DNA of 64,000 nucleotides from a virus. Below are positions 49,791 to 60,583 of the stretch, piece by piece. The stretch is from positions 64,001 through 128,000 of the IMG/VR virus record IMGVR_UViG_3300027708_000026, one strand, 5' to 3'. The notes under the pieces are model-generated. The model saw only the letters and a program-made list of their open reading frames with translations, was not told the DNA's origin and ran no database searches. How positions within the stretch are numbered: position 1 is the first letter of the stretch; the number at the start of each line of letters is the position of its first letter. Position numbers and translations under genes: made by a program.

Positions 49791-50975
49791 ATGTACATTG
49801 AAGACTTAATCATATCTCTAATACACAATCGTGTGCCAGTGAACGCATGGGATAAGGGTGTTGTTGTCAGCTTCTACACACAGATCCACGATCTTACCGG
49901 CTTCACTGAAAAGCAGTCGGCATTGGCTTTGAGAATATGTAAAAGATATGCTTCATCTCTTTCCTTACACGCCAAACAAGATGTTACGCCATTTTTAGAA
50001 AATCCAAAATTTCGTAATACAATTAGGAAATCAGTGAACAGTCGAATTATTAAAATAGTTGATGATGAATACTTACATCGAGTTATCGAAGTTAATTTTC
50101 CCTATGATGAGAAAATGATTGCAGAAATCAGAGAATTCAAAAATCAAAATCATGATAATCTTGTGGTATGGAGCAAGGAAAAGTCTTCATGGTCGTTCTG
50201 TTTGAATGAGCCAAACATTAAATTCTTATCAGATCATTTTAAAAATACTGGTGCTGATATTGATATGGAATTTCAAAATTACTCCGATCAGTTAGAACCA
50301 ATTGTTTCTAATCTTCAAAATCATATTCCCATGTTGACTGCTAGAGATGGGAGATTGGCTATTACTAACGCTCCTAAAACTATGCCAGAAATCAAAACTG
50401 GAAATATATTAGAAGCAGTATTTGCTGCTAGACAGTATGGTATTACCATGTGGGATGAAACGATTGATGATTTTATAAACAGCGATTATGTCGATGAATC
50501 CACTAGGGAATTCTTGAAATCAGATTATCGAGCTACAACTAAGTTATCAGCGGATGGAAATGGCATCTGTTGTTTAGGAAACATGGCGAGATTTTTAGGA
50601 CCAATGTTGTTTATCATTCCGGGCGGAAGCGAATACCGTAAGATACAGCAAATACATACTGTGCTAAGTGATATAGGAATAACCGATAAAAAAATGAGTG
50701 TTTTGTTCAGATTAAGCAGCGAAACCGGCAGAGAATTTAATGATTTTGTTAAAAATCATTCATTAAATAACCCTATTTCTGAAGAGACACAGGTAGTGTT
50801 TGTAAGTGGTAAGTTACCTAAACCATTGATTGAATCTGGAATACGATTCAACAGCGTGGTGAATGTTGGATTTAATAATGCCCATTATACCCTAAGAGAA
50901 TATGCAAAAAATCATCAAAATGTAGTATACTTTGAACTAGAAAAACAAAAGGGATCAGATTTTGGCCACATGTAA
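49791..50975 (+). CDS. Hypothetical protein with a HARP-like motif
   Basis: Start moved to ATG 49791. FPYDEKMIAEIREF...WSKEKSSW resembles HARP domains; overlaps the uvsW start. Confidence 0.5.
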   Translation: MYIEDLIISLIHNRVPVNAWDKGVVVSFYTQIHDLTGFTEKQSALALRICKRYASSLSLHAKQDVTPFLENPKFRNTIRKSVNSRIIKIVDDEYLHRVIEVNFPYDEKMIAEIREFKNQNHDNLVVWSKEKSSWSFCLNEPNIKFLSDHFKNTGADIDMEFQNYSDQLEPIVSNLQNHIPMLTARDGRLAITNAPKTMPEIKTGNILEAVFAARQYGITMWDETIDDFINSDYVDESTREFLKSDYRATTKLSADGNGICCLGNMARFLGPMLFIIPGGSEYRKIQQIHTVLSDIGITDKKMSVLFRLSSETGREFNDFVKNHSLNNPISEETQVVFVSGKLPKPLIESGIRFNSVVNVGFNNAHYTLREYAKNHQNVVYFELEKQKGSDFGHM

Positions 50976-52422
50976 AGTTGTTATTAAAGATGAAGTCAAT
51001 GTTAAGATAGAAAATCTAGACTTAGATACACGCAAGGCATTGGTCAAAAAATTCAAATATGAGGATCCATCTGCTCGATTTAGGCCCAGCTATAAACTAG
51101 GTAGGTGGGATGGTAGCATCAGCTTCTTTGGATTAGGCGGTACTACCTATATGAGTATGCTAGGTCCGGTGTTAGAATATCTAGAAAGCAAGAATTTTTA
51201 CATCGAAGTAGAAGATCATCGAACTAGTGAGCCCTTAGAATTTCCTGAAATCTTTGAGGACTTTTGGGGAGACCAAACATGGCCCGAAGGACATAGATTT
51301 GCCGGAGAGAAGATTGTGCTGCGCGATGACCAAGTGGATGTTATCAATAAATTTTTAGCCAATCCTCAATGCATTCAAGAAATTGCCACAGGATTTGGTA
51401 AAACTATTACTACTGCCACGCTGTCGAAGATTTGTGAAAAGTATGGACGCACTATAACTATCGTTCCAAACAAAAGTCTAGTGGAACAAACTGAAGAGGA
51501 TTTTGTCAACTGTCAATTAGATGTAGGTGTGTATTACGGTGATAGGAAAGATCTAGACAAGACGCATACAATTTGTACCTGGCAGAGTTTGAACATACTA
51601 GATAAAAATTCTAAAAATTGGGACGAAGCGGCGTGTGCTCGATTAGAAATGTTATTGGATAATGTACAATGCGTTATGGTCGATGAAGTGCATATGGCCA
51701 AAGCTGAAGTGTTAAAAAATCTACTGACTCGCAATCTTTCAAGGACACCAATTCGGTGGGGATTGACTGGCACTATACCCAAAGCCGAACATGAGTTCCA
51801 AAGCATCCGTGCAAGTTTGGGCGAGGTAGTTAATAGAGTTGCTGCACATACTCTACAAGAGGCCGGAGTGCTTAGTAACTGCCATGTCAATATTATACAA
51901 ACCGCTGAATGGAAAGAGTTCGGTAGTTATGCGGAAGAACTGAAATATCTAGTAACTGATCCAACTCGCATGAATTATTTGTGCTCATTGATACAGGGAA
52001 TTTCAGAAACGGGAAATACACTGGTCTTAGTCAATAGGATCGAGTCTGGCAAAACTATGGCAGAGAAATTAACTGATGCAGTATTTGTATCGGGCGAAGT
52101 TAAAACTAAAGATAGAAAAGCAGAATATGATGAAATTAAGACAGTTGACAATAAGATTATTGTGGCGACTTACGGTGTGGCCGCTGTGGGTATTAATATT
52201 CCTAGGATTTTTAATCTGGTTCTTCTGGAGCCCGGAAAGAGCTTTGTACGAGTTATACAGTCGATTGGGCGAGGTATTCGAAAAGCAGACGACAAAGATT
52301 TCGTAACTATCTGGGATGTAACAGCAGCCAGCAAATACGCCAAACGTCACCTGACAGAAAGAAAGAGATTTTATAAAGAAGCCAAATATCCATTTACGAT
52401 TGAAAAAGTAAAATATGTATAA
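50962..52422 (+). CDS. uvsW: SF2 DNA helicase (UvsW-like)
   Basis: GRWDG, ATGFGKT, DEVH, GLTGT, GINIP and QSIGRGIR motifs; TTG start. Confidence 0.93.
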   Translation: MATCKVVIKDEVNVKIENLDLDTRKALVKKFKYEDPSARFRPSYKLGRWDGSISFFGLGGTTYMSMLGPVLEYLESKNFYIEVEDHRTSEPLEFPEIFEDFWGDQTWPEGHRFAGEKIVLRDDQVDVINKFLANPQCIQEIATGFGKTITTATLSKICEKYGRTITIVPNKSLVEQTEEDFVNCQLDVGVYYGDRKDLDKTHTICTWQSLNILDKNSKNWDEAACARLEMLLDNVQCVMVDEVHMAKAEVLKNLLTRNLSRTPIRWGLTGTIPKAEHEFQSIRASLGEVVNRVAAHTLQEAGVLSNCHVNIIQTAEWKEFGSYAEELKYLVTDPTRMNYLCSLIQGISETGNTLVLVNRIESGKTMAEKLTDAVFVSGEVKTKDRKAEYDEIKTVDNKIIVATYGVAAVGINIPRIFNLVLLEPGKSFVRVIQSIGRGIRKADDKDFVTIWDVTAASKYAKRHLTERKRFYKEAKYPFTIEKVKYV

Positions 52423-53124: not shown

Positions 53125-53628
53125 ATGCAAATTTTAACCTTAGACAACAAGACCATGTTCTTAAACGATCTACCTAGCGAGATCGATGATGACCTTAGAT
53201 TTGCTATTCTTGATAACAGCGACAGCTCAAACCCCGATCACTTTTTTATACCTTTGATATTTTTAGAAAGTTTTACCGGTCCCGCGGTAGTCTTAAAAAT
53301 AGGCCCTCACGAACTCAGCATGCCATTAGATTGGTGTACTATCGTAGGTGATCCAGAGGGTCCTGATATGGAAGTACTACCGCTGACCAGTTTGAATGAT
53401 CGAGGTTTTAAAACTTTCTGTTTCAATCCTCGCGGCAGCTTCCGTCCAGAATTTTTAGATATCGACATCATTGATGTGTATCAAGATGTCAAATGGTATT
53501 TCCCTAAAATGCGTCCCGGACATTTGTTATGCACTCCATTAGAAGCCGGTGACAATCCTAGATGTGCTTATTTTGTCAAAGAAGTGAGCCGTCAAAATGA
53601 ACTCGTAGATTATACTAAGTGTTGGTAA
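53125..53628 (+). CDS. Hypothetical protein
   Basis: 167-aa beta-rich ORF in the replication operon. Confidence 0.65.
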   Translation: MQILTLDNKTMFLNDLPSEIDDDLRFAILDNSDSSNPDHFFIPLIFLESFTGPAVVLKIGPHELSMPLDWCTIVGDPEGPDMEVLPLTSLNDRGFKTFCFNPRGSFRPEFLDIDIIDVYQDVKWYFPKMRPGHLLCTPLEAGDNPRCAYFVKEVSRQNELVDYTKCW

Positions 53629-53895
53629 ATGACTCGAATATTTGAAAGCCCGGACAAGGGTGAAACCGTATATGCCAGAGATATGGGTTCAACTGAACGG
53701 GTCATTCATTCAGAGAGCGAAAAGAGAAAAAGTCTTCACGATGATATAAAAGAATCTCAGCTCTGGGGAAATATTCATCGTGCGGCAAAGACCAATCCTG
53801 CTTTACAAGAAGCATTAGATCGTGTTAAAATAACATACTACCTAACAGCAGATTACGAAAAACGATATGGCAACCGCAAAAACACCAAAACCTAA
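53629..53895 (+). CDS. Hypothetical protein
   Basis: IFESPDKGETVYAR N-terminal motif; abuts the upstream stop codon. Confidence 0.6.
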   Translation: MTRIFESPDKGETVYARDMGSTERVIHSESEKRKSLHDDIKESQLWGNIHRAAKTNPALQEALDRVKITYYLTADYEKRYGNRKNTKT

Positions 53896-54361
53896 AGCAA
53901 AGCCAAAACTTGACTTAACTAAGGTACTCAACGCCGTTGATTCTAGGAACTACGGATTCTATGATACTCTGACCGAGGAAGAGGTCAAAGGATTCAGTCC
54001 ATATGTGCTGATGAGATATACATCGAATGTCAGCTCTAGTGATAAAGGAGTTCATGAATGGTTTATAGAAAGGACCAATGAACGTGTAAATTTGAATCAC
54101 TGGGACTTGAGTAAGAATCATGAAGCATTGTTGTGGAAGCTGTGTGCTACAGTAGGTACAGGTGAAAAATACTATCATCAATATGCCAAGGCTCCTGGCA
54201 AAGAGTCAGCTAACAAGATTGAAAAATTGTTATGCGAACTACATCCAGCGATGAAAATGTCTGACATCAAGGTTATGGCAGGTATGATGAGCGATGAGGA
54301 TTGTAAAGAGCTATTCGATAAGATGGGATTTGATAAGAAACAAAGGAAGATCTACGAATAA
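53867..54361 (+). CDS. Clamp-loader small subunit-like protein (gp62-like)
   Basis: FSPYVLMRYTS...N..VN pattern resembles gp62-family proteins; replication context. Confidence 0.5.
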   Translation: MATAKTPKPKAKPKLDLTKVLNAVDSRNYGFYDTLTEEEVKGFSPYVLMRYTSNVSSSDKGVHEWFIERTNERVNLNHWDLSKNHEALLWKLCATVGTGEKYYHQYAKAPGKESANKIEKLLCELHPAMKMSDIKVMAGMMSDEDCKELFDKMGFDKKQRKIYE

Positions 54362-54567
54362 TGGAAAACTCTAAAGAAAATACCATGCGTGTACTAAAAG
54401 GACAGTTTCCCATACAGAAACTTCGTTGCCGTATGAATTGGCATAGGTGGACCAGTTGGGAAGTAATTACAAACCCTAATTTTGGAAATACATATGCCCA
54501 CTGTCATTGTGCAGACTGTGGTATGCCACGGCAAGAACTTCCGTACACCAAAAGTAGGAGAATATGA
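54361..54567 (+). CDS. Small Cys/His-rich hypothetical protein
   Basis: CRMNWHRW...HCHCADCG motif; translationally coupled to its neighbours. Confidence 0.55.
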   Translation: MENSKENTMRVLKGQFPIQKLRCRMNWHRWTSWEVITNPNFGNTYAHCHCADCGMPRQELPYTKSRRI

Positions 54568-55259
54568 TCGCATTAGTAGAACAACCTTATAATTGTGTAC
54601 ATTGCGGTAAGAGTTTTATGAAAGATAAAACTCTAGTAGCGCATATGTGTGAGCGCAAACGCCGCGCACTGCAAAAAGACGAGAAGCGTGTGCAAGCAGG
54701 CTTTATGGCATTCAATCGTTTTTGGCAACTGACACAAAATGCCAAGAAGTCTAAGACATATGACAACTTTGCCGACAGCAGTTATTACAATGCATTTGTT
54801 AAATTTGGTGGATTTGTCAATAACATAAATCCCCTGTACCCAGATAAGTTTATCGACTATGTGATCAAAAGTGGAGTCAAGTTGGATCACTGGTGTAGAG
54901 ATGAATTGTATGAGAAATATCTTTATGAGATGATCAAAGTCGAGCCAGTTGAAAGCGCAGTACAGCGTTCATTGAAAACAATGATGGAATGGGGAGACGA
55001 GCGCGATATGAATTTTTCAGAATACTTCTCTCAGGTCAGCTTAAACAAAGCAGTATATGATATACTAAACGGGAAGATAAGTCCTTGGATAATTTTAAAT
55101 TGTAACGCTGGACAGTCCATGGTCAAGGGAATGAGTGATGAGCAGCTGGACATGATTGCTCCGGCATTTGATGTGCCGTACTGGTTGCGTAAATTCCGTG
55201 AACTACCAGCTGATACTGCATTGGTAAAAGAGATATGTTCAGAGGCGGGAATAAAATGA
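54564..55259 (+). CDS. Zn-finger hypothetical protein
   Basis: N-terminal YNCVHCGKSFMKDKTLVAHMC (C2HC finger). Confidence 0.65.
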   Translation: MIALVEQPYNCVHCGKSFMKDKTLVAHMCERKRRALQKDEKRVQAGFMAFNRFWQLTQNAKKSKTYDNFADSSYYNAFVKFGGFVNNINPLYPDKFIDYVIKSGVKLDHWCRDELYEKYLYEMIKVEPVESAVQRSLKTMMEWGDERDMNFSEYFSQVSLNKAVYDILNGKISPWIILNCNAGQSMVKGMSDEQLDMIAPAFDVPYWLRKFRELPADTALVKEICSEAGIK

Positions 55260-55645
55260 GTCAGGAAAATGTTAAAAAATTTGTAGAGCATCATCGAATC
55301 AATGTTATTGATGATAACAAACGTGCCTATAAACATACACGCATGGATGTGAAATATTTTCAGTTTCCCGATGACTATAATAAGATGAATACGACACAGG
55401 CGATACAATACGAAACTGTAAAACTATTAACAGTGGAAATTACCGAAGATACATTAGAAAGAATAGCAGACTTTGAAACTGAAGTATTCAATAACATGCG
55501 AGATCAAGGTCATTATAGAATGTTTGAAACCTTGATGGAACAGAAGGAAAAAGAAAAATATCTAAGGTTCACATATCCAGCAGTGAAAAAGGCTTACGAA
55601 CATTATAGTCTTATGTTAAAACTAGCAGAAAGCGGGGAAATGTGA
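55256..55645 (+). CDS. Hypothetical protein
   Basis: ATG 55256 overlaps the upstream stop (ATGA); C-terminal YPAVKKAYEHY. Confidence 0.6.
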   Translation: MSQENVKKFVEHHRINVIDDNKRAYKHTRMDVKYFQFPDDYNKMNTTQAIQYETVKLLTVEITEDTLERIADFETEVFNNMRDQGHYRMFETLMEQKEKEKYLRFTYPAVKKAYEHYSLMLKLAESGEM

Positions 55646-56118
55646 CCAACATAGTTAAGGGTAGGACCAGTTATGACTCTACTTCTACTGGCGCCATAAT
55701 TCCTTTCCTTAATAGGAATGTCACACCTTATGCTACAGAATCTAGCGGACCAACATTTGATCTAATACCAGTCACTGAACAAAAGGATCTAATGATCAAT
55801 CATGCCAGGATGTATGCCCAGCAAGAATATGATCGTATCATGGAATTGGTTCGAGTACTAGAAGGTCAGGCTCGCCAAATTAAAAGAAGATTAGAAATAA
55901 CAGATGCAGTACATGCATCAGAATTTCAATTTAAACTGGTCATGGGCAAGTGCTATTGGCTAGTTTGGGACAAGAGAAAAGAAAAAACTCTGTTGGTGCT
56001 GCAAGGACCTGACGGGTGGAGCACCGGTGTGCCGGAGGATTATGTGTATCAAACCCAAGTTAAATATATGGGAGATCATACTTGGTTAGAAGTTGATGAA
56101 GAAGGGGAACCTATATGA
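55642..56118 (+). CDS. DUF2452-like protein
   Basis: QARQIKRRLEI...F..VMGKCYWL...P..W...V...DHTW pattern. Confidence 0.5.
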   Translation: MTNIVKGRTSYDSTSTGAIIPFLNRNVTPYATESSGPTFDLIPVTEQKDLMINHARMYAQQEYDRIMELVRVLEGQARQIKRRLEITDAVHASEFQFKLVMGKCYWLVWDKRKEKTLLVLQGPDGWSTGVPEDYVYQTQVKYMGDHTWLEVDEEGEPI

Positions 56119-56303
56119 ATAAGCCAAAACAAGGCAGTAGATGGATTGGTAGCGGGAGTCACGAAGTATTTCGAGTACTGAATACTATTGACATGAAAGA
56201 TGGACATACCTGGGTACACTACTGTAAAGAAAATGACGGGGATCAGAACTACAGTTGCTACTTAGAAAGTTTTTTAGAACGATTTACAGAAACCGTTAAT
56301 TAA
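56115..56303 (+). CDS. Small hypothetical protein
   Basis: 62 aa, SD GAAGGGG, WVHY...YSC..ESF..RF pattern. Confidence 0.6.
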   Translation: MNKPKQGSRWIGSGSHEVFRVLNTIDMKDGHTWVHYCKENDGDQNYSCYLESFLERFTETVN

Positions 56304-56312
56304 TGCTATAAT
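56283..56312 (+). promoter_or_regulatory. Sigma70 extended -10 promoter
   Basis: TTTACA...TGcTATAAT, with the ATG 5 nt downstream. Confidence 0.6.
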
Positions 56313-56317
56313 AATGT

Positions 56318-56905
56318 ATGCCTGATATCGATGTAGACTTTGCCAATCGTGATGATATTTTAAACATTATCAAACACATACCTGCGGCTATTCGTGATAA
56401 GGACACACTGAAAAAACATAACACTGGCGTATACTGTTCCACTATCCCCTATAATCCATTAACTGATACTGCCAGTATCGATTATAAAACTGCCGACGAA
56501 CGTGGATATTTTAAGATAGATTTTTTAAATGTTGGAGCATATCACGGAGTCAAGAACGAAGAACATTTGAAGCAGTTGCTTGACATTGAACCGCTATGGG
56601 ATTTGTTAGAATCTAAAGATGTGTGCGATCAATTATTTCACATCAACGGATATCATAACTTGTTGGCAGATTTAAAACCTAAAAGTATCGTTGAACTAGC
56701 CATGGTCCTGGCCATGATCAGACCCGGCAAAAAATATCTCGTCCCAGTATGCAAGGAACAAGGATTCCAGGCCATCAATGATGAAATATGGACTAAGACT
56801 GAGGATGCCTATTTCTTCAAGAAGGCCCACGCCATATCGTATGCGTCGGTTATTGTAGTTCAACTTAACCTCCTATGTGAGCGTATTAGCTGCGGGTACT
56901 CTTAA
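56318..56905 (+). CDS. Minimal DNA polymerase III alpha (DnaE)-like catalytic core
   Basis: MPDIDVDF, KHNTGVY, GYFKIDFL, AMIRPG and YFFKKAHAISYA match DnaE palm and finger motifs within only 195 aa. Confidence 0.85.
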   Translation: MPDIDVDFANRDDILNIIKHIPAAIRDKDTLKKHNTGVYCSTIPYNPLTDTASIDYKTADERGYFKIDFLNVGAYHGVKNEEHLKQLLDIEPLWDLLESKDVCDQLFHINGYHNLLADLKPKSIVELAMVLAMIRPGKKYLVPVCKEQGFQAINDEIWTKTEDAYFFKKAHAISYASVIVVQLNLLCERISCGYS

Positions 56906-57269
56906 CTGCCCTAACTAGTTGTATTGATTTTCTTTTTATTCTTTTTTCGGCAATTTCACTGAGATTAACAGTGGGGCCAAATACCACTTCGATATCTTTG
57001 CTGCTGAATGTTTTTATCGTATACCTAAATGCCTGCATTTCTTTTTTTAGGAAAATATTAATAGGTATTCGACGATTGCTCTCCCACCACCATATTTCAC
57101 CTAATTCTAAAAAAGCCAATCGATCTTCCTCAGTTTTAACAGTGGATATATCGTAGATACTAGTGATATAGTCATCGAAATTAATGACGATTCCCACATA
57201 TTCTATGTTATTTGATTTAACACAGGAGATGAAGGGATGATTTTCTTGGAAGGTATTGGGAACAGCCAT
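56886..57269 (-). CDS. Hypothetical protein
   Basis: Likely start ATG 57269 (MAVPNTF); WWWESNRRIPINIFL motif; minus-strand TATAAATA at 57305-57312. Confidence 0.6.
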   Translation of the reverse strand: MAVPNTFQENHPFISCVKSNNIEYVGIVINFDDYITSIYDISTVKTEEDRLAFLELGEIWWWESNRRIPINIFLKKEMQAFRYTIKTFSSKDIEVVFGPTVNLSEIAEKRIKRKSIQLVRAVKSTRS

Positions 57270-57286
57270 TATCAATAAATACTTGT

Positions 57287-58123
57287 ATGCAAAGTTTACC
57301 AATCTATTTATACGAAAATATTCTGGCTGTAACATTAGATTTGGATACAACAGTCCGGGGAGTCAATCAAGTCATGTATCAACGCGATTTACAAATACAA
57401 AAGGGCATCAAAAACGTAGTCCGAATACAGTTCAAAAACAGCAATCAAAAGCGAGTCCCGATAACAGACGCATCTGTTTTCATATTCTCCATGTTTGATG
57501 CTGTCAACAACCGATTGCTGGTAGAAAAGCAACTCACAATCTTAGATGACGGATCTACTCTAGCTTTAAAAGGTCTCGCAGAATTGACATTGACTGAAAG
57601 CGATACCATGGATCTACCAGTATCCAGTTATCAATTTGTGATCAAGCATCAAGATCCAACTGACGGAACTTACTTGCCAACTTACGCAGATACCTACTAT
57701 GGTGTCAGTGGCAGGCTTCATTTAAAACAAGATGCTTATCCAATTTTGCAGCCCAGTCAGGAAATCGTCAGCTTCAATCGCAGCTACAACTCATCGATTG
57801 CCAAATACGAACACTCTTCCGGTAGTGTGTATGCTTATCCAGAGTTCAATGGAAACCAAGCACTTCATACCATGGCTATCTACATGAAGAAATTTAAAGG
57901 TACGGTTTATATTCAAGGAACACTTTCTAATATTCCGGGATTCAACTATTCAACTATTAGCACCAAAGTATACAATGGATTTAGCGGAATTGATTACGTC
58001 AATTTCAACGGAGTATACACATACGTTCGGGCATACTATGTGCCCGCAACTGCCCCAGCAGAATCTATGAACGATAATACTGCTTTCTACGGATCACTTG
58101 ACAAAATACTGTATAGATGCTAA
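57287..58123 (+). CDS. Putative virion structural protein
   Basis: Beta-rich 278-aa protein; TAAATA (57276-57281) 5 nt before the ATG. Confidence 0.5.
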   Translation: MQSLPIYLYENILAVTLDLDTTVRGVNQVMYQRDLQIQKGIKNVVRIQFKNSNQKRVPITDASVFIFSMFDAVNNRLLVEKQLTILDDGSTLALKGLAELTLTESDTMDLPVSSYQFVIKHQDPTDGTYLPTYADTYYGVSGRLHLKQDAYPILQPSQEIVSFNRSYNSSIAKYEHSSGSVYAYPEFNGNQALHTMAIYMKKFKGTVYIQGTLSNIPGFNYSTISTKVYNGFSGIDYVNFNGVYTYVRAYYVPATAPAESMNDNTAFYGSLDKILYRC

Positions 58124-58131: not shown

Positions 58132-59136
58132 GTGAACGAAATACAGTCAACACTTCAAGCATTACTGCCTTCCAAAAAGAAATCTACCCTAAGCGGTTGG
58201 GATTCTTTTAACGCACCCTGCTGTCACAATCGCGGAGAAACTCGCGACAAACATCAGCGCGGCGGTATACGCATAGAGAAGGATGGCTTCGTTTTCCATT
58301 GCTTTAACTGCGGATTTGCTGCTGGATGGACTCCCGGTAAATTACTGAGCAAAAATACCAAAGACTTATTCAAATGGCTGGGATTGGGTGAACTTGATAT
58401 AGGCAAACTTAATTTGGCAGCACTCAAGATCAAAGATGATCAACCAGTATTCAAAAAGCCTCTAAACTTTACATTGGAAGAACGACCTTTACCAGAAGGC
58501 GCTATGCTACTCAAAGAGTGGGCATTGGCGATTTGGCGTCCTGGCCAAGATGCAGACATGGTTCAAGTGTTTGAATACCTTGTCAGTAGAGGCATGGAAC
58601 TCGATTGGTATGATTGGATGTGGACTCCTGCTGCTGGATACAAGGATCGATTACTTATACCTTTCTATCACGATGGTAAAGTAGTTGGCTACACTGGTCG
58701 TAAGATAACTGAAGGCAAGCCAAAATATCTAACAGATGCTCAATCTGGTTATGTATTCAACTTGGATCGTCAGACTAGAGACAGGGAATTTGTCATAGTA
58801 GTTGAGGGTCAGTTTGATGCCATAGCAGTTGACGGATGTGCCATAATGCACAACGATCCCAATGACACACAGGTGACTAGGCTGAATGCCATGGGCAAAG
58901 AAGTAATAGTCGTACCGGACAAGGATCGCCCGGGTGCAAAACTTGTCGCCGCTGCCATAAAGAATAAATGGAGTGCCAGTTTGCCCCCGTGGGAAGATGA
59001 CATAAAAGATGTCGCCGATGCAGTCAAACGATATGGCAGAATATACACATTAACCACGATATTGAACTACAAGGTTAGTGGCGAGATAAATTTACATCTA
59101 CTTAAGAAGAAACTAGAGTCTATAACCAATGAATAA
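58132..59136 (+). CDS. DNA primase (DnaG/gp61-like)
   Basis: Zn-binding PCCH...HCFNCG, RLLIPF..GYTGR, PKYL, Toprim VEGQFDA and PDKD, and KDVAD motifs. Confidence 0.88.
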   Translation: MNEIQSTLQALLPSKKKSTLSGWDSFNAPCCHNRGETRDKHQRGGIRIEKDGFVFHCFNCGFAAGWTPGKLLSKNTKDLFKWLGLGELDIGKLNLAALKIKDDQPVFKKPLNFTLEERPLPEGAMLLKEWALAIWRPGQDADMVQVFEYLVSRGMELDWYDWMWTPAAGYKDRLLIPFYHDGKVVGYTGRKITEGKPKYLTDAQSGYVFNLDRQTRDREFVIVVEGQFDAIAVDGCAIMHNDPNDTQVTRLNAMGKEVIVVPDKDRPGAKLVAAAIKNKWSASLPPWEDDIKDVADAVKRYGRIYTLTTILNYKVSGEINLHLLKKKLESITNE

Positions 59137-60583
59137 AAAAGAAAAAACACCCAAGCCAAACTATGATTTGGCCATGCAAAAATTATATATCGAAATGTTT
59201 TTGTCCGATGGAGAAACATTCATGCGCTGTCAAAATATTTTCGATCCGTTAAACTTTGATCAAAGACTACAAACAGCAGCAGAATTTATCAACAAGTATG
59301 TCGATGACTACAAAGTCATGCCCGAGCCCAGTATCATTAATGCTGCAACTCGCAGCACCTTTGAGGGTATAGCATTGCCCAAGGAAAATTATGAATGGCT
59401 GATGGATGAGTTTGAAAACTTCAGCAGACATAAAGGATTAGAACGAGCAATCATTGCCAGCAGCGATTTACTTGAAGCTGGCGATTATGGTCCAGTGGAA
59501 AAGCTGATTAAAGATGCCATACAGATCAGTTTGAATAAAGACATGGGCACTGACTATTTTGCAGATCCCAGAGCTAGACTGATGGCATTGAAAGATGGCA
59601 ATGGTCAGATCAGCACAGGGTGGCCTAGTGTGGATAAGAAACTATATGGCGGATTCAATCGTGGAGAGTTGAATATCTTCTGTGCAGCATCAGGTGGTGG
59701 TAAGAGTTTGTTCTTGGCCAACCTAGGTGTGAATTGGGCACTGATGGGATTGAATGTTATCTATCTAACTTTTGAATTGAGTGAGCGATTAGTGGCCATG
59801 CGTGTGGACAGTATGACTACTGGCATTGGTACAAGGGACATTTTTAGAAATATCGATGATGTCGAACTCAAAGTAAAGACTTTGCAAAAACGCAGTGGAC
59901 ATCTGCAAATTAAGTATATGCCTAGTGGCAAAAATTGCAACGATATTCGAGCCTATTTAAAGGAATATCAGGTCAAATCAGGTGTGAAACCAGACGTTAT
60001 TTTAATAGATTACTTGGATTTAATGATGCCTTTGTCAGTGAAGGTAAGTCCCAGCGATTTGTTTGTTAAAGACAAATATGTGTCGGAAGAGATTAGAAAT
60101 TTGGCAATGGAAACACAATGTATCACAGTGACTGCCAGTCAGTTGAATCGTAGTGCGGTTGAGGAAATTGAATTTGATCACAGTCATATTAGTGGCGGAT
60201 TGAGTAAGATTATGACGGCGGATAATGTGATTGGTATTTTTACTAGTCGTGCAATGAAAGAGCGCGGACGCTATCAGATACAGTTTATGAAGACACGCTC
60301 CAGTAGCGGTGTGGGCCAAAAAGTTGATTTAGAATTCAACTTAGAAACTTTGCGAATAAGCGATTTGGATGAGGAAGAAGACGGCGGTATTAAAAAGCCC
60401 ACTTCAAATAGTGTATTGGATGGATTGAAAAGAACTAGCGTAGTTACCACAAGCACTGATAGTAACAAGTGGGAACGTGCAACTCCCAAGGAAGGGTTCG
60501 ATCTTGCCAAACCTCAACCCCCAAAAACTTCAGGCCCGTCAATTAGGACCATGCTTAATAATCTACATCCCGAAAAGGATTAG
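59129..60583 (+). CDS. gp41: Replicative DnaB-family helicase (gp41-like)
   Basis: ISTGW, ASGGGKS, TFELSE, IDYLDL, TASQLNR, TADNV and MKTRSS motifs. Confidence 0.95.
   Translation: MNKKEKTPKPNYDLAMQKLYIEMFLSDGETFMRCQNIFDPLNFDQRLQTAAEFINKYVDDYKVMPEPSIINAATRSTFEGIALPKENYEWLMDEFENFSRHKGLERAIIASSDLLEAGDYGPVEKLIKDAIQISLNKDMGTDYFADPRARLMALKDGNGQISTGWPSVDKKLYGGFNRGELNIFCAASGGGKSLFLANLGVNWALMGLNVIYLTFELSERLVAMRVDSMTTGIGTRDIFRNIDDVELKVKTLQKRSGHLQIKYMPSGKNCNDIRAYLKEYQVKSGVKPDVILIDYLDLMMPLSVKVSPSDLFVKDKYVSEEIRNLAMETQCITVTASQLNRSAVEEIEFDHSHISGGLSKIMTADNVIGIFTSRAMKERGRYQIQFMKTRSSSGVGQKVDLEFNLETLRISDLDEEEDGGIKKPTSNSVLDGLKRTSVVTTSTDSNKWERATPKEGFDLAKPQPPKTSGPSIRTMLNNLHPEKD

Follow-up and report, generated by a model that had tools for sequence, protein, structure and literature searches.

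A 195-residue protein of an uncultured virus as the probable C-terminal unit of a split minimal DNA polymerase III alpha

The 195-aa protein analyzed here is best explained as the C-terminal subunit (hereafter the C-unit) of a two-gene miniature nucleotidyltransferase of the C family (Pol III alpha/DnaE type) of the group 2.2 (Rak2/121Q/PA5oct/Atu_ph07-like) jumbo phages, a reading to which we assign a probability of roughly 85%. Its gene lies in a 64,000-nucleotide stretch (the window), positions 64001-128000 of a 144,907-bp IMG/VR record judged by CheckV to be 41% complete. The C-unit supplies the metal-binding carboxylates D3, D5, and D68, the phosphate-contacting K66, and a trimmed finger module (RPG, KKxHA), and the first half of the Pol-beta-like palm, which bears the GRGS motif, is missing from it, as are the PHP, thumb, clamp-binding, and OB domains. 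In relatives the absent palm half is a separate protein of ~172 aa, the N-unit (PHROG 11127), and the window virus presumably encodes one as well.

A split “minimal DNA polymerase III alpha” of group 2.2 jumbo phages was described by Iyer, Anantharaman, Krishnan, Burroughs, and Aravind (2021, Viruses 13:63; PMC7824862), with an N-terminal NTP-binding unit and a C-terminal Mg2+/template-binding unit encoded by genes far apart and a family B polymerase alongside. The window protein is the C-terminal unit of this already published enzyme and a new uncultured member. It shares with the known members (PHROG 11778 for the C-unit and PHROG 11127 for the N-unit) the family assignment, a length of ~190 aa, the D-x-D start, the replication-gene neighborhood, and the partner architecture seen in its relatives. 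Nothing essential differs; the window copy is uncultured, the contig recovered does not carry its N-unit, and in its sub-clade the gene is preceded by two additional small ORFs as well as a promoter-like site. No biochemical or experimental work on any member of the family was found in the literature searched, and the polymerase goes unmentioned in the PA5oct omics paper. The features of the locus are given in Table 1.

Table 1 Features of the window in and around the gene block that holds the C-unit gene
Feature	Position	Strand	Basis or remark
SF2 DNA helicase, UvsW-like	50962-52422	+	phrog_16, E 1.1e-74; DEAD/ResIII/Helicase_C on orthologue
DUF2452 protein, 158 aa	55642-56118		PF10504, E 2.8e-8
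Sigma-70-like promoter pattern, TTTACA-18 nt-(TG)TATAAT	56283-56312	+	11/12 positions match
C-terminal unit of split minimal DNA polymerase III alpha, 195 aa	56318-56905	+	PHROG 11778, fold, conserved residues, dN/dS
Convergent ORF, PHROG 11637	56886-57350	-	overlaps 3' end of C-unit gene by 20 nt
Virion structural protein	57287-58123		phrog_14467, E 1.7e-12
DNA primase	58132-59136	+	phrog_47, E 1.8e-38; Phosso gene at same relative position annotated DNA primase
DnaB-like replicative helicase	59129-60583	+	phrog_19, E 4.9e-70; PF03796 DnaB_C on orthologues

Reading frame, conservation, and fold of the C-unit

The ATG of the 195-aa ORF is preceded two codons upstream by an in-frame TAA (56312-56314), which rules out an N-terminal extension of the C-unit and makes M1-P-D3-I-D5-V-D7-F the true start. 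A prior sequence-only reading had placed the initiator Met directly on the D-x-D catalytic motif, and the upstream stop bears this out. The motifs it quoted are also all present (GYFKIDFL at residues 63-70, IRPG at 134-137, and YFFKKAHAISYA at 165-176), whereas the start that it gave, 56283, belongs to the -35 hexamer of the promoter-like site, the gene beginning at 56318. In the related viral contigs that were examined, the reading frame opens at the D-x-D motif or at most 25 codons from it, sometimes with TTG or GTG as start codon.

Residues 3-189 of the C-unit aligned with positions 8-194 of PHROG 11778 (‘DNA polymerase’, 197 positions) at E 1.6e-63, and the match to PHROG 405, the full-length Pol III alpha family, was weak. 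In the Pfam scan of the 195-aa protein the finger domain PF17657 remained sub-threshold (15.7 bits versus a 22-bit cut-off), PF07733 gave no match, and PHP, thumb, clamp-binding, and OB domains were not found. Homologues of ~190 aa were detected by tblastn in 96 isolate phage genomes, all jumbo myoviruses, including Phosso (at 49% identity the best isolate match), the PA5oct group (47%), Atu_ph07, XacN1, SCTP-2, and the 121Q/PBECO4/Rak2 group. Megablast of the C-unit region against isolate phages gave no match, and a single-sequence PDB search returned a chance match only. Among metagenome proteins there are ~6,800 C-unit clusters of 107-342 residues, the best 120 of which are all 191-204 aa in length, and a 50%-identity library holds 415 representatives.

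In an alignment of 86 sequences D3, D5, K66, D68, and P136 were invariant, and D7, I134, R135, K138, K168, H171, and A176 were at least 90% conserved; the finger-domain motifs RPG and KKxHA-Y are thus present in the C-unit and conserved at that level. Profile-to-PDB alignment on Taq Pol III alpha paired D3/D5 with D463/D465, K66/D68 with K616/D618, RPG with residues 698-700, KKxHA with 814-818, and KKxHA-Y with 814-821. The RPG/KKxHA finger module of Pol III alpha contacts nucleotide and template.

An AlphaFold2 model of the C-unit built from the same 86-sequence alignment had a mean pLDDT of 94.9 and a pTM of 0.87, and the best 15 Foldseek matches of the model in the PDB were without exception entries of Pol III alpha or of another replicative polymerase of bacteria. 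Alignment with VIA-align gave Z 10.2 (rmsd 3.6, 190 residues aligned) against residues 461-841 of Taq 3E0D, Z 9.9 against residues 400-781 of E. coli Pol III alpha (2HNH), and Z 9.5 against residues 419-811 of M. tuberculosis 5LEW, whereas the best unrelated chain gave Z 3.2. About 190 of the ~380 residues of the E. coli 400-781 stretch, namely the thumb and the finger inserts, are missing from the C-unit, which has nothing equivalent to E. coli Pol III alpha before residue 400 or after ~781. The modeled fold is that of a second palm half plus a reduced finger domain, with the three catalytic acidic residues (D3, D5, and D68) on Pol-beta-like palm strands; the GS nucleotide-binding motif and the first palm half are not in the polypeptide. 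The C-unit therefore has in common with bacterial DnaE (E. coli 2HNH, Taq 2HPI/3E0D, and M. tuberculosis 5LEW) the Pol-beta-like palm, the D-x-D...K-x-D, RPG, and (N/K)KSHA-Y motifs, and a structural alignment of Z ~10 over all 190 C-unit residues, but differs from it in the separate first palm half and in having no thumb, large finger inserts, PHP, beta-clamp-binding, OB, or tau-binding domains.

The C-terminal tail (residues 192-195, window 56893-56902) reads ...ISCGYS, and in relatives ...ISYGYS; the last block of the model averages a pLDDT of 67. This type of tail is kept among close relatives and not in distant family members. The flexible tail could be a lineage-specific docking peptide.

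The C-unit gene is under strong purifying selection. By the Nei-Gojobori method the window gene compared with its 91% identical homologue on contig L101 gave dN 0.052, dS 0.716, and omega 0.073, and an independent close pair (L031/L037) gave omega 0.09, more distant pairs being saturated at synonymous sites. We also considered a decaying remnant of a full-length DnaE, as a protein of 195 aa might be taken to be when its bacterial counterparts exceed 1000 aa. Against this stand the dN/dS of ~0.07, the ~6,800 homologues (107-342 residues, with those listed at 191-204 aa), the frames of related loci that begin at the D-x-D motif or within about 25 codons of it, and the lack of flanking DnaE fragments. 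The selection and length data refute a pseudogene, and we regard the chance of decay as negligible. The sequence-only reading had likewise argued for a functional product, and the best-matching homologues, which have the same length and start, agree with it.

The N-unit in relatives and the left end of the contig

PHROG 405 picked out a second piece in Phosso, at 97.2 kb, which is a gene for 177 aa annotated ‘DnaE-like’ by the depositors, the product of which ends ...GVGRGSSVASY...DFDEFLN and belongs to PHROG 11127. The Phosso C-unit gene is located at 321 kb, 224 kb from the N-unit gene. In the closest long relative, G001 (221 kb, 62% complete, C-unit 81% identical to that of the window), the N-unit of 172 aa is encoded at 50.2 kb and the C-unit at 202.7 kb; in G002 (374 kb, 100% complete) the respective positions are 145 kb and about 271 kb, and both units are present in the partial genomes G003 and G004. 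Four of five related long contigs carry the N-unit, the sole exception being only 24% complete, and the distance between the two genes in relatives is 126-224 kb. The two families are about equally abundant, the N-unit having at least 7,992 metagenome clusters compared with ~6,800 for the C-unit. Among isolates the counts by host genus are nearly identical for N-unit and C-unit: 34 and 34 for Escherichia, 11 and 11 for Pseudomonas, 10 and 11 for Klebsiella, 8 and 8 for both Salmonella and Erwinia, and 4 and 4 for Xanthomonas.

The G001 N-unit matches Pfam PF07733 (43.7 bits, cut-off 23.9) and ends ...GVGRGSS...EFLK, where the GRGS nucleotide-binding motif lies. Its model superimposed on residues 271-393 of E. 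coli Pol III alpha with Z 7.5-8.0 and, as the C-unit matches from residue 400, the two units abut at E. coli ~393/400. By these models the palm itself is divided, the split point lying after the GS nucleotide-binding element and before the first catalytic strand. The N-unit modeled by itself had a pLDDT of 74.9 that was lowest, ~62, in the region of the GS motif; low confidence there would fit a need for the partner but does not demonstrate it. The N-unit profile had no match to PDB sequences at E <= 0.01, and thus its link to Pol III alpha is given by the Pfam match and the fold.

The two units are also found as one natural protein. P0177, a called gene on the 2.4-kb metagenomic contig L100, encodes 375 aa that consist of an N-unit (36% identity to that of G001), a linker of ~10 aa, and a C-unit (39% identity to that of the window), with PF07733 running unbroken across the N/C junction. 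The gene 3' of P0177 on the opposite strand is a homologue of the window's reverse-strand ORF at 56886-57350 (E 7e-9), indicating that the fusion occupies the C-unit locus; the two loci differ in that P0177 is a single polypeptide. In a quick midpoint-rooted (in effect unrooted) tree the C-half of P0177 groups with two split forms (SH-aLRT 95), which hints that P0177 may be a secondary fusion. P0177 is the only N+C fusion seen; neither the viral contigs queried with it nor a search for longer proteins gave further fused forms, which is weak evidence.

A C-family polymerase made from two distant genes is also known from cyanobacteria, in which the dnaE-n and dnaE-c halves carry split-intein segments and are trans-spliced into a full-length enzyme. 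The jumbo-phage units differ from these in that Pfam scans detected no intein domain on either of them. In G001 a 225-aa HNH-type endonuclease ORF (L013:9321-9998; HHIIPRHMGG...NNIIELSVEEHSQAH) lies directly upstream of the C-unit gene, its last base being the first base of the C-unit ATG, and it is absent from the window. Although only sporadic in occurrence, a mobile nuclease located where the gene is split hints at how the break once came about.

These findings bear on the proposal, made from the sequence, that the 195-aa protein is a stand-alone minimal enzyme which binds nucleotide and DNA and catalyzes without a second palm piece. Its catalytic carboxylates and finger motifs are all present and invariant, it folds confidently alone (pLDDT 94.9), and it possibly has its own promoter. 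However, the palm half with the GS motif (E. coli 271-393) is absent from it, relatives encode that half in a gene of its own (~172 codons) that is as abundant as the C-unit gene and co-occurs with it, and both halves are joined in P0177. From the Pol III alpha structures (Lamers 2006, cited in Iyer et al. 2021), no C-family polymerase is known to work without the GS-motif segment. We therefore consider a stand-alone polymerase very unlikely and the C-unit to be one of two subunits.

Neither the N-unit (PHROG 11127) nor any other DnaE piece (PF07733, phrog_405, phrog_11127) was found in the six frames of the 145-kb record, in agreement with the earlier statement that no upstream DnaE fragment accompanies the gene. 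A family B polymerase was likewise not found in the window, as had been noted before, or in the whole record. The latter absence is probably an effect of the contig end, and relatives G001-G003 carry a PolB of ~890 aa. G000, the window's record, runs colinear with G001, shifted by +82 to +84 kb, and its base 1 corresponds to G001 83,785. The 889-aa PolB of G001 lies at 80,687-83,356. Projected onto the G001 map, PolB would end ~430 bp to the left of the window's record, and the N-unit would be encoded ~34 kb to its left. By this colinearity both genes are probably missing from the record because of the contig boundary, and the N-unit gene of the window virus should be located beyond the left contig end, as extrapolated from its relatives.

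Gene neighborhood and the promoter-like site

The C-unit gene is held in a conserved block headed by the SF2 helicase gene, with the same synteny in Phosso. The order is SF2 helicase, conserved proteins (PHROGs 11279, 11758, and 11058), DUF2452 protein, C-unit, PHROG 11637 ORF, virion structural protein, primase, and DnaB-like helicase. The DUF2452 protein and a 62-aa ORF (together 55642-56303) precede the C-unit only in the window's sub-clade, whereas homologues of 55235-55645 or 54564-55259 stand immediately before the C-unit in more distant relatives. Downstream, no terminator was found between the C-unit gene and the convergent PHROG 11637 ORF, and the convergent pairing of these two genes is kept even beside the fused form on L100. 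A virion structural gene sits between the C-unit and the primase and helicase genes, an arrangement that is the same in Phosso.

The sequence-only reading had suggested that the protein might be one piece of a multi-gene split replicase with the neighboring proteins at 53125-55645. It is a piece of a split C-family polymerase, but the partner is not among these neighbors. The adjacent ORFs are syntenic with the C-unit gene across relatives, Phosso included, and lie in a replication block, as missing polymerase pieces might. Profile, six-frame, and protein searches nevertheless gave no DnaE resemblance in any of them, and the true homologous N-terminal piece is located elsewhere in relatives, so that a polymerase assembled from the adjacent ORFs seems very unlikely. 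The only Pfam matches among the neighboring ORFs were DUF2452, just outside 53125-55645, and a sub-threshold zinc finger. The neighboring conserved ORFs may be accessory factors.

A third subunit, a DnaQ/epsilon-like exonuclease, was suggested in the Atu_ph07 paper. PF00929 is absent from the window's record, from G001, and from the complete G002, and by these scans an epsilon-like proofreader does not appear to be a conserved partner in this clade.

The gene had been credited with its own promoter 5 nt upstream. The pattern is indeed present and stops 5 nt before the C-unit ATG, although the evidence is a pattern match only, and the plus strand of the 145-kb record has 10 such promoter-like sites including this one. 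The -10 element is retained in the two closest relatives (L101 and L102) and not in more distant ones, in which the C-unit start lies against the stop codon of the preceding gene or overlaps it. No Shine-Dalgarno sequence was found before the C-unit ATG, and thus the mRNA may be leaderless or nearly so. Outside the window, near the right end of the record (G000:C1:141500-144700), near-perfect sigma-70 consensus promoters are clustered on both strands and include three perfect 12/12 TTGACA-17-TATAAT sites. This cluster may mark an early-gene region.

Assembly, possible roles, and significance

The N-unit and the C-unit would associate non-covalently, as no intein domain was detected on either and native DnaE sequence runs up to the end of the N-unit and from the very start of the C-unit. 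Their joining would restore one palm at the place where bacterial DnaE reads ...FLN(PERVS)MPDFDVDF. Judging from the conserved residues, the heterodimer would perform templated DNA synthesis, probably with poor processivity, and it could act as an auxiliary polymerase beside the family B replicase in repair, gap filling, or primer extension. Lacking a thumb or clamp-binding element, such synthesis may be weak or need accessory proteins.

The heterodimer might also be real and yet serve as a template-independent nucleotidyltransferase, a signaling-nucleotide synthase, or a non-catalytic replisome adaptor. It has no thumb, clamp-binding motif, PHP domain, or conserved epsilon-like proofreader (PF00929 being absent from G000, G001, and G002), many transferases other than polymerases have the Pol-beta-like fold, and relatives already have a family B replicase. 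The nearly invariant RPG and KKxHA-Y motifs are hard to explain without a nucleic-acid substrate, however, and the invariant catalytic triad speaks against a non-catalytic role. We regard this group of functions as unlikely, and a two-subunit C-family polymerase as the better account.

A more ambitious version of the latter, which we put forward as a speculative possibility, is that the N+C mini Pol III is a true second polymerase of the replisome that elongates primase-made primers and then passes them on to the family B enzyme, in the manner of Pol alpha, or that copies one strand. The C-unit gene has primase and DnaB-type helicase genes beside it. Some residual activity of the C-unit when alone is less likely still.

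In principle the window copy adds nothing to the 2021 description. The additions made here are the split point at E. coli ~393/400, the natural fused form of 375 aa, and the evidence of purifying selection. The main practical value of the analysis is corrective: annotating or pursuing the gene as a complete mini-polymerase would be a mistake, and the apparent lack of PolB probably reflects a contig boundary. The split mini Pol III family has thousands of strongly conserved metagenomic variants and is the smallest version known of the bacterial replicative polymerase core. If the reading as a second replisome polymerase is true, no known C-family polymerase would be smaller, and the pair would be a living model of the ancestral core of Pol III, an idea on which Iyer et al. 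(2021, PMC7824862) speculated.
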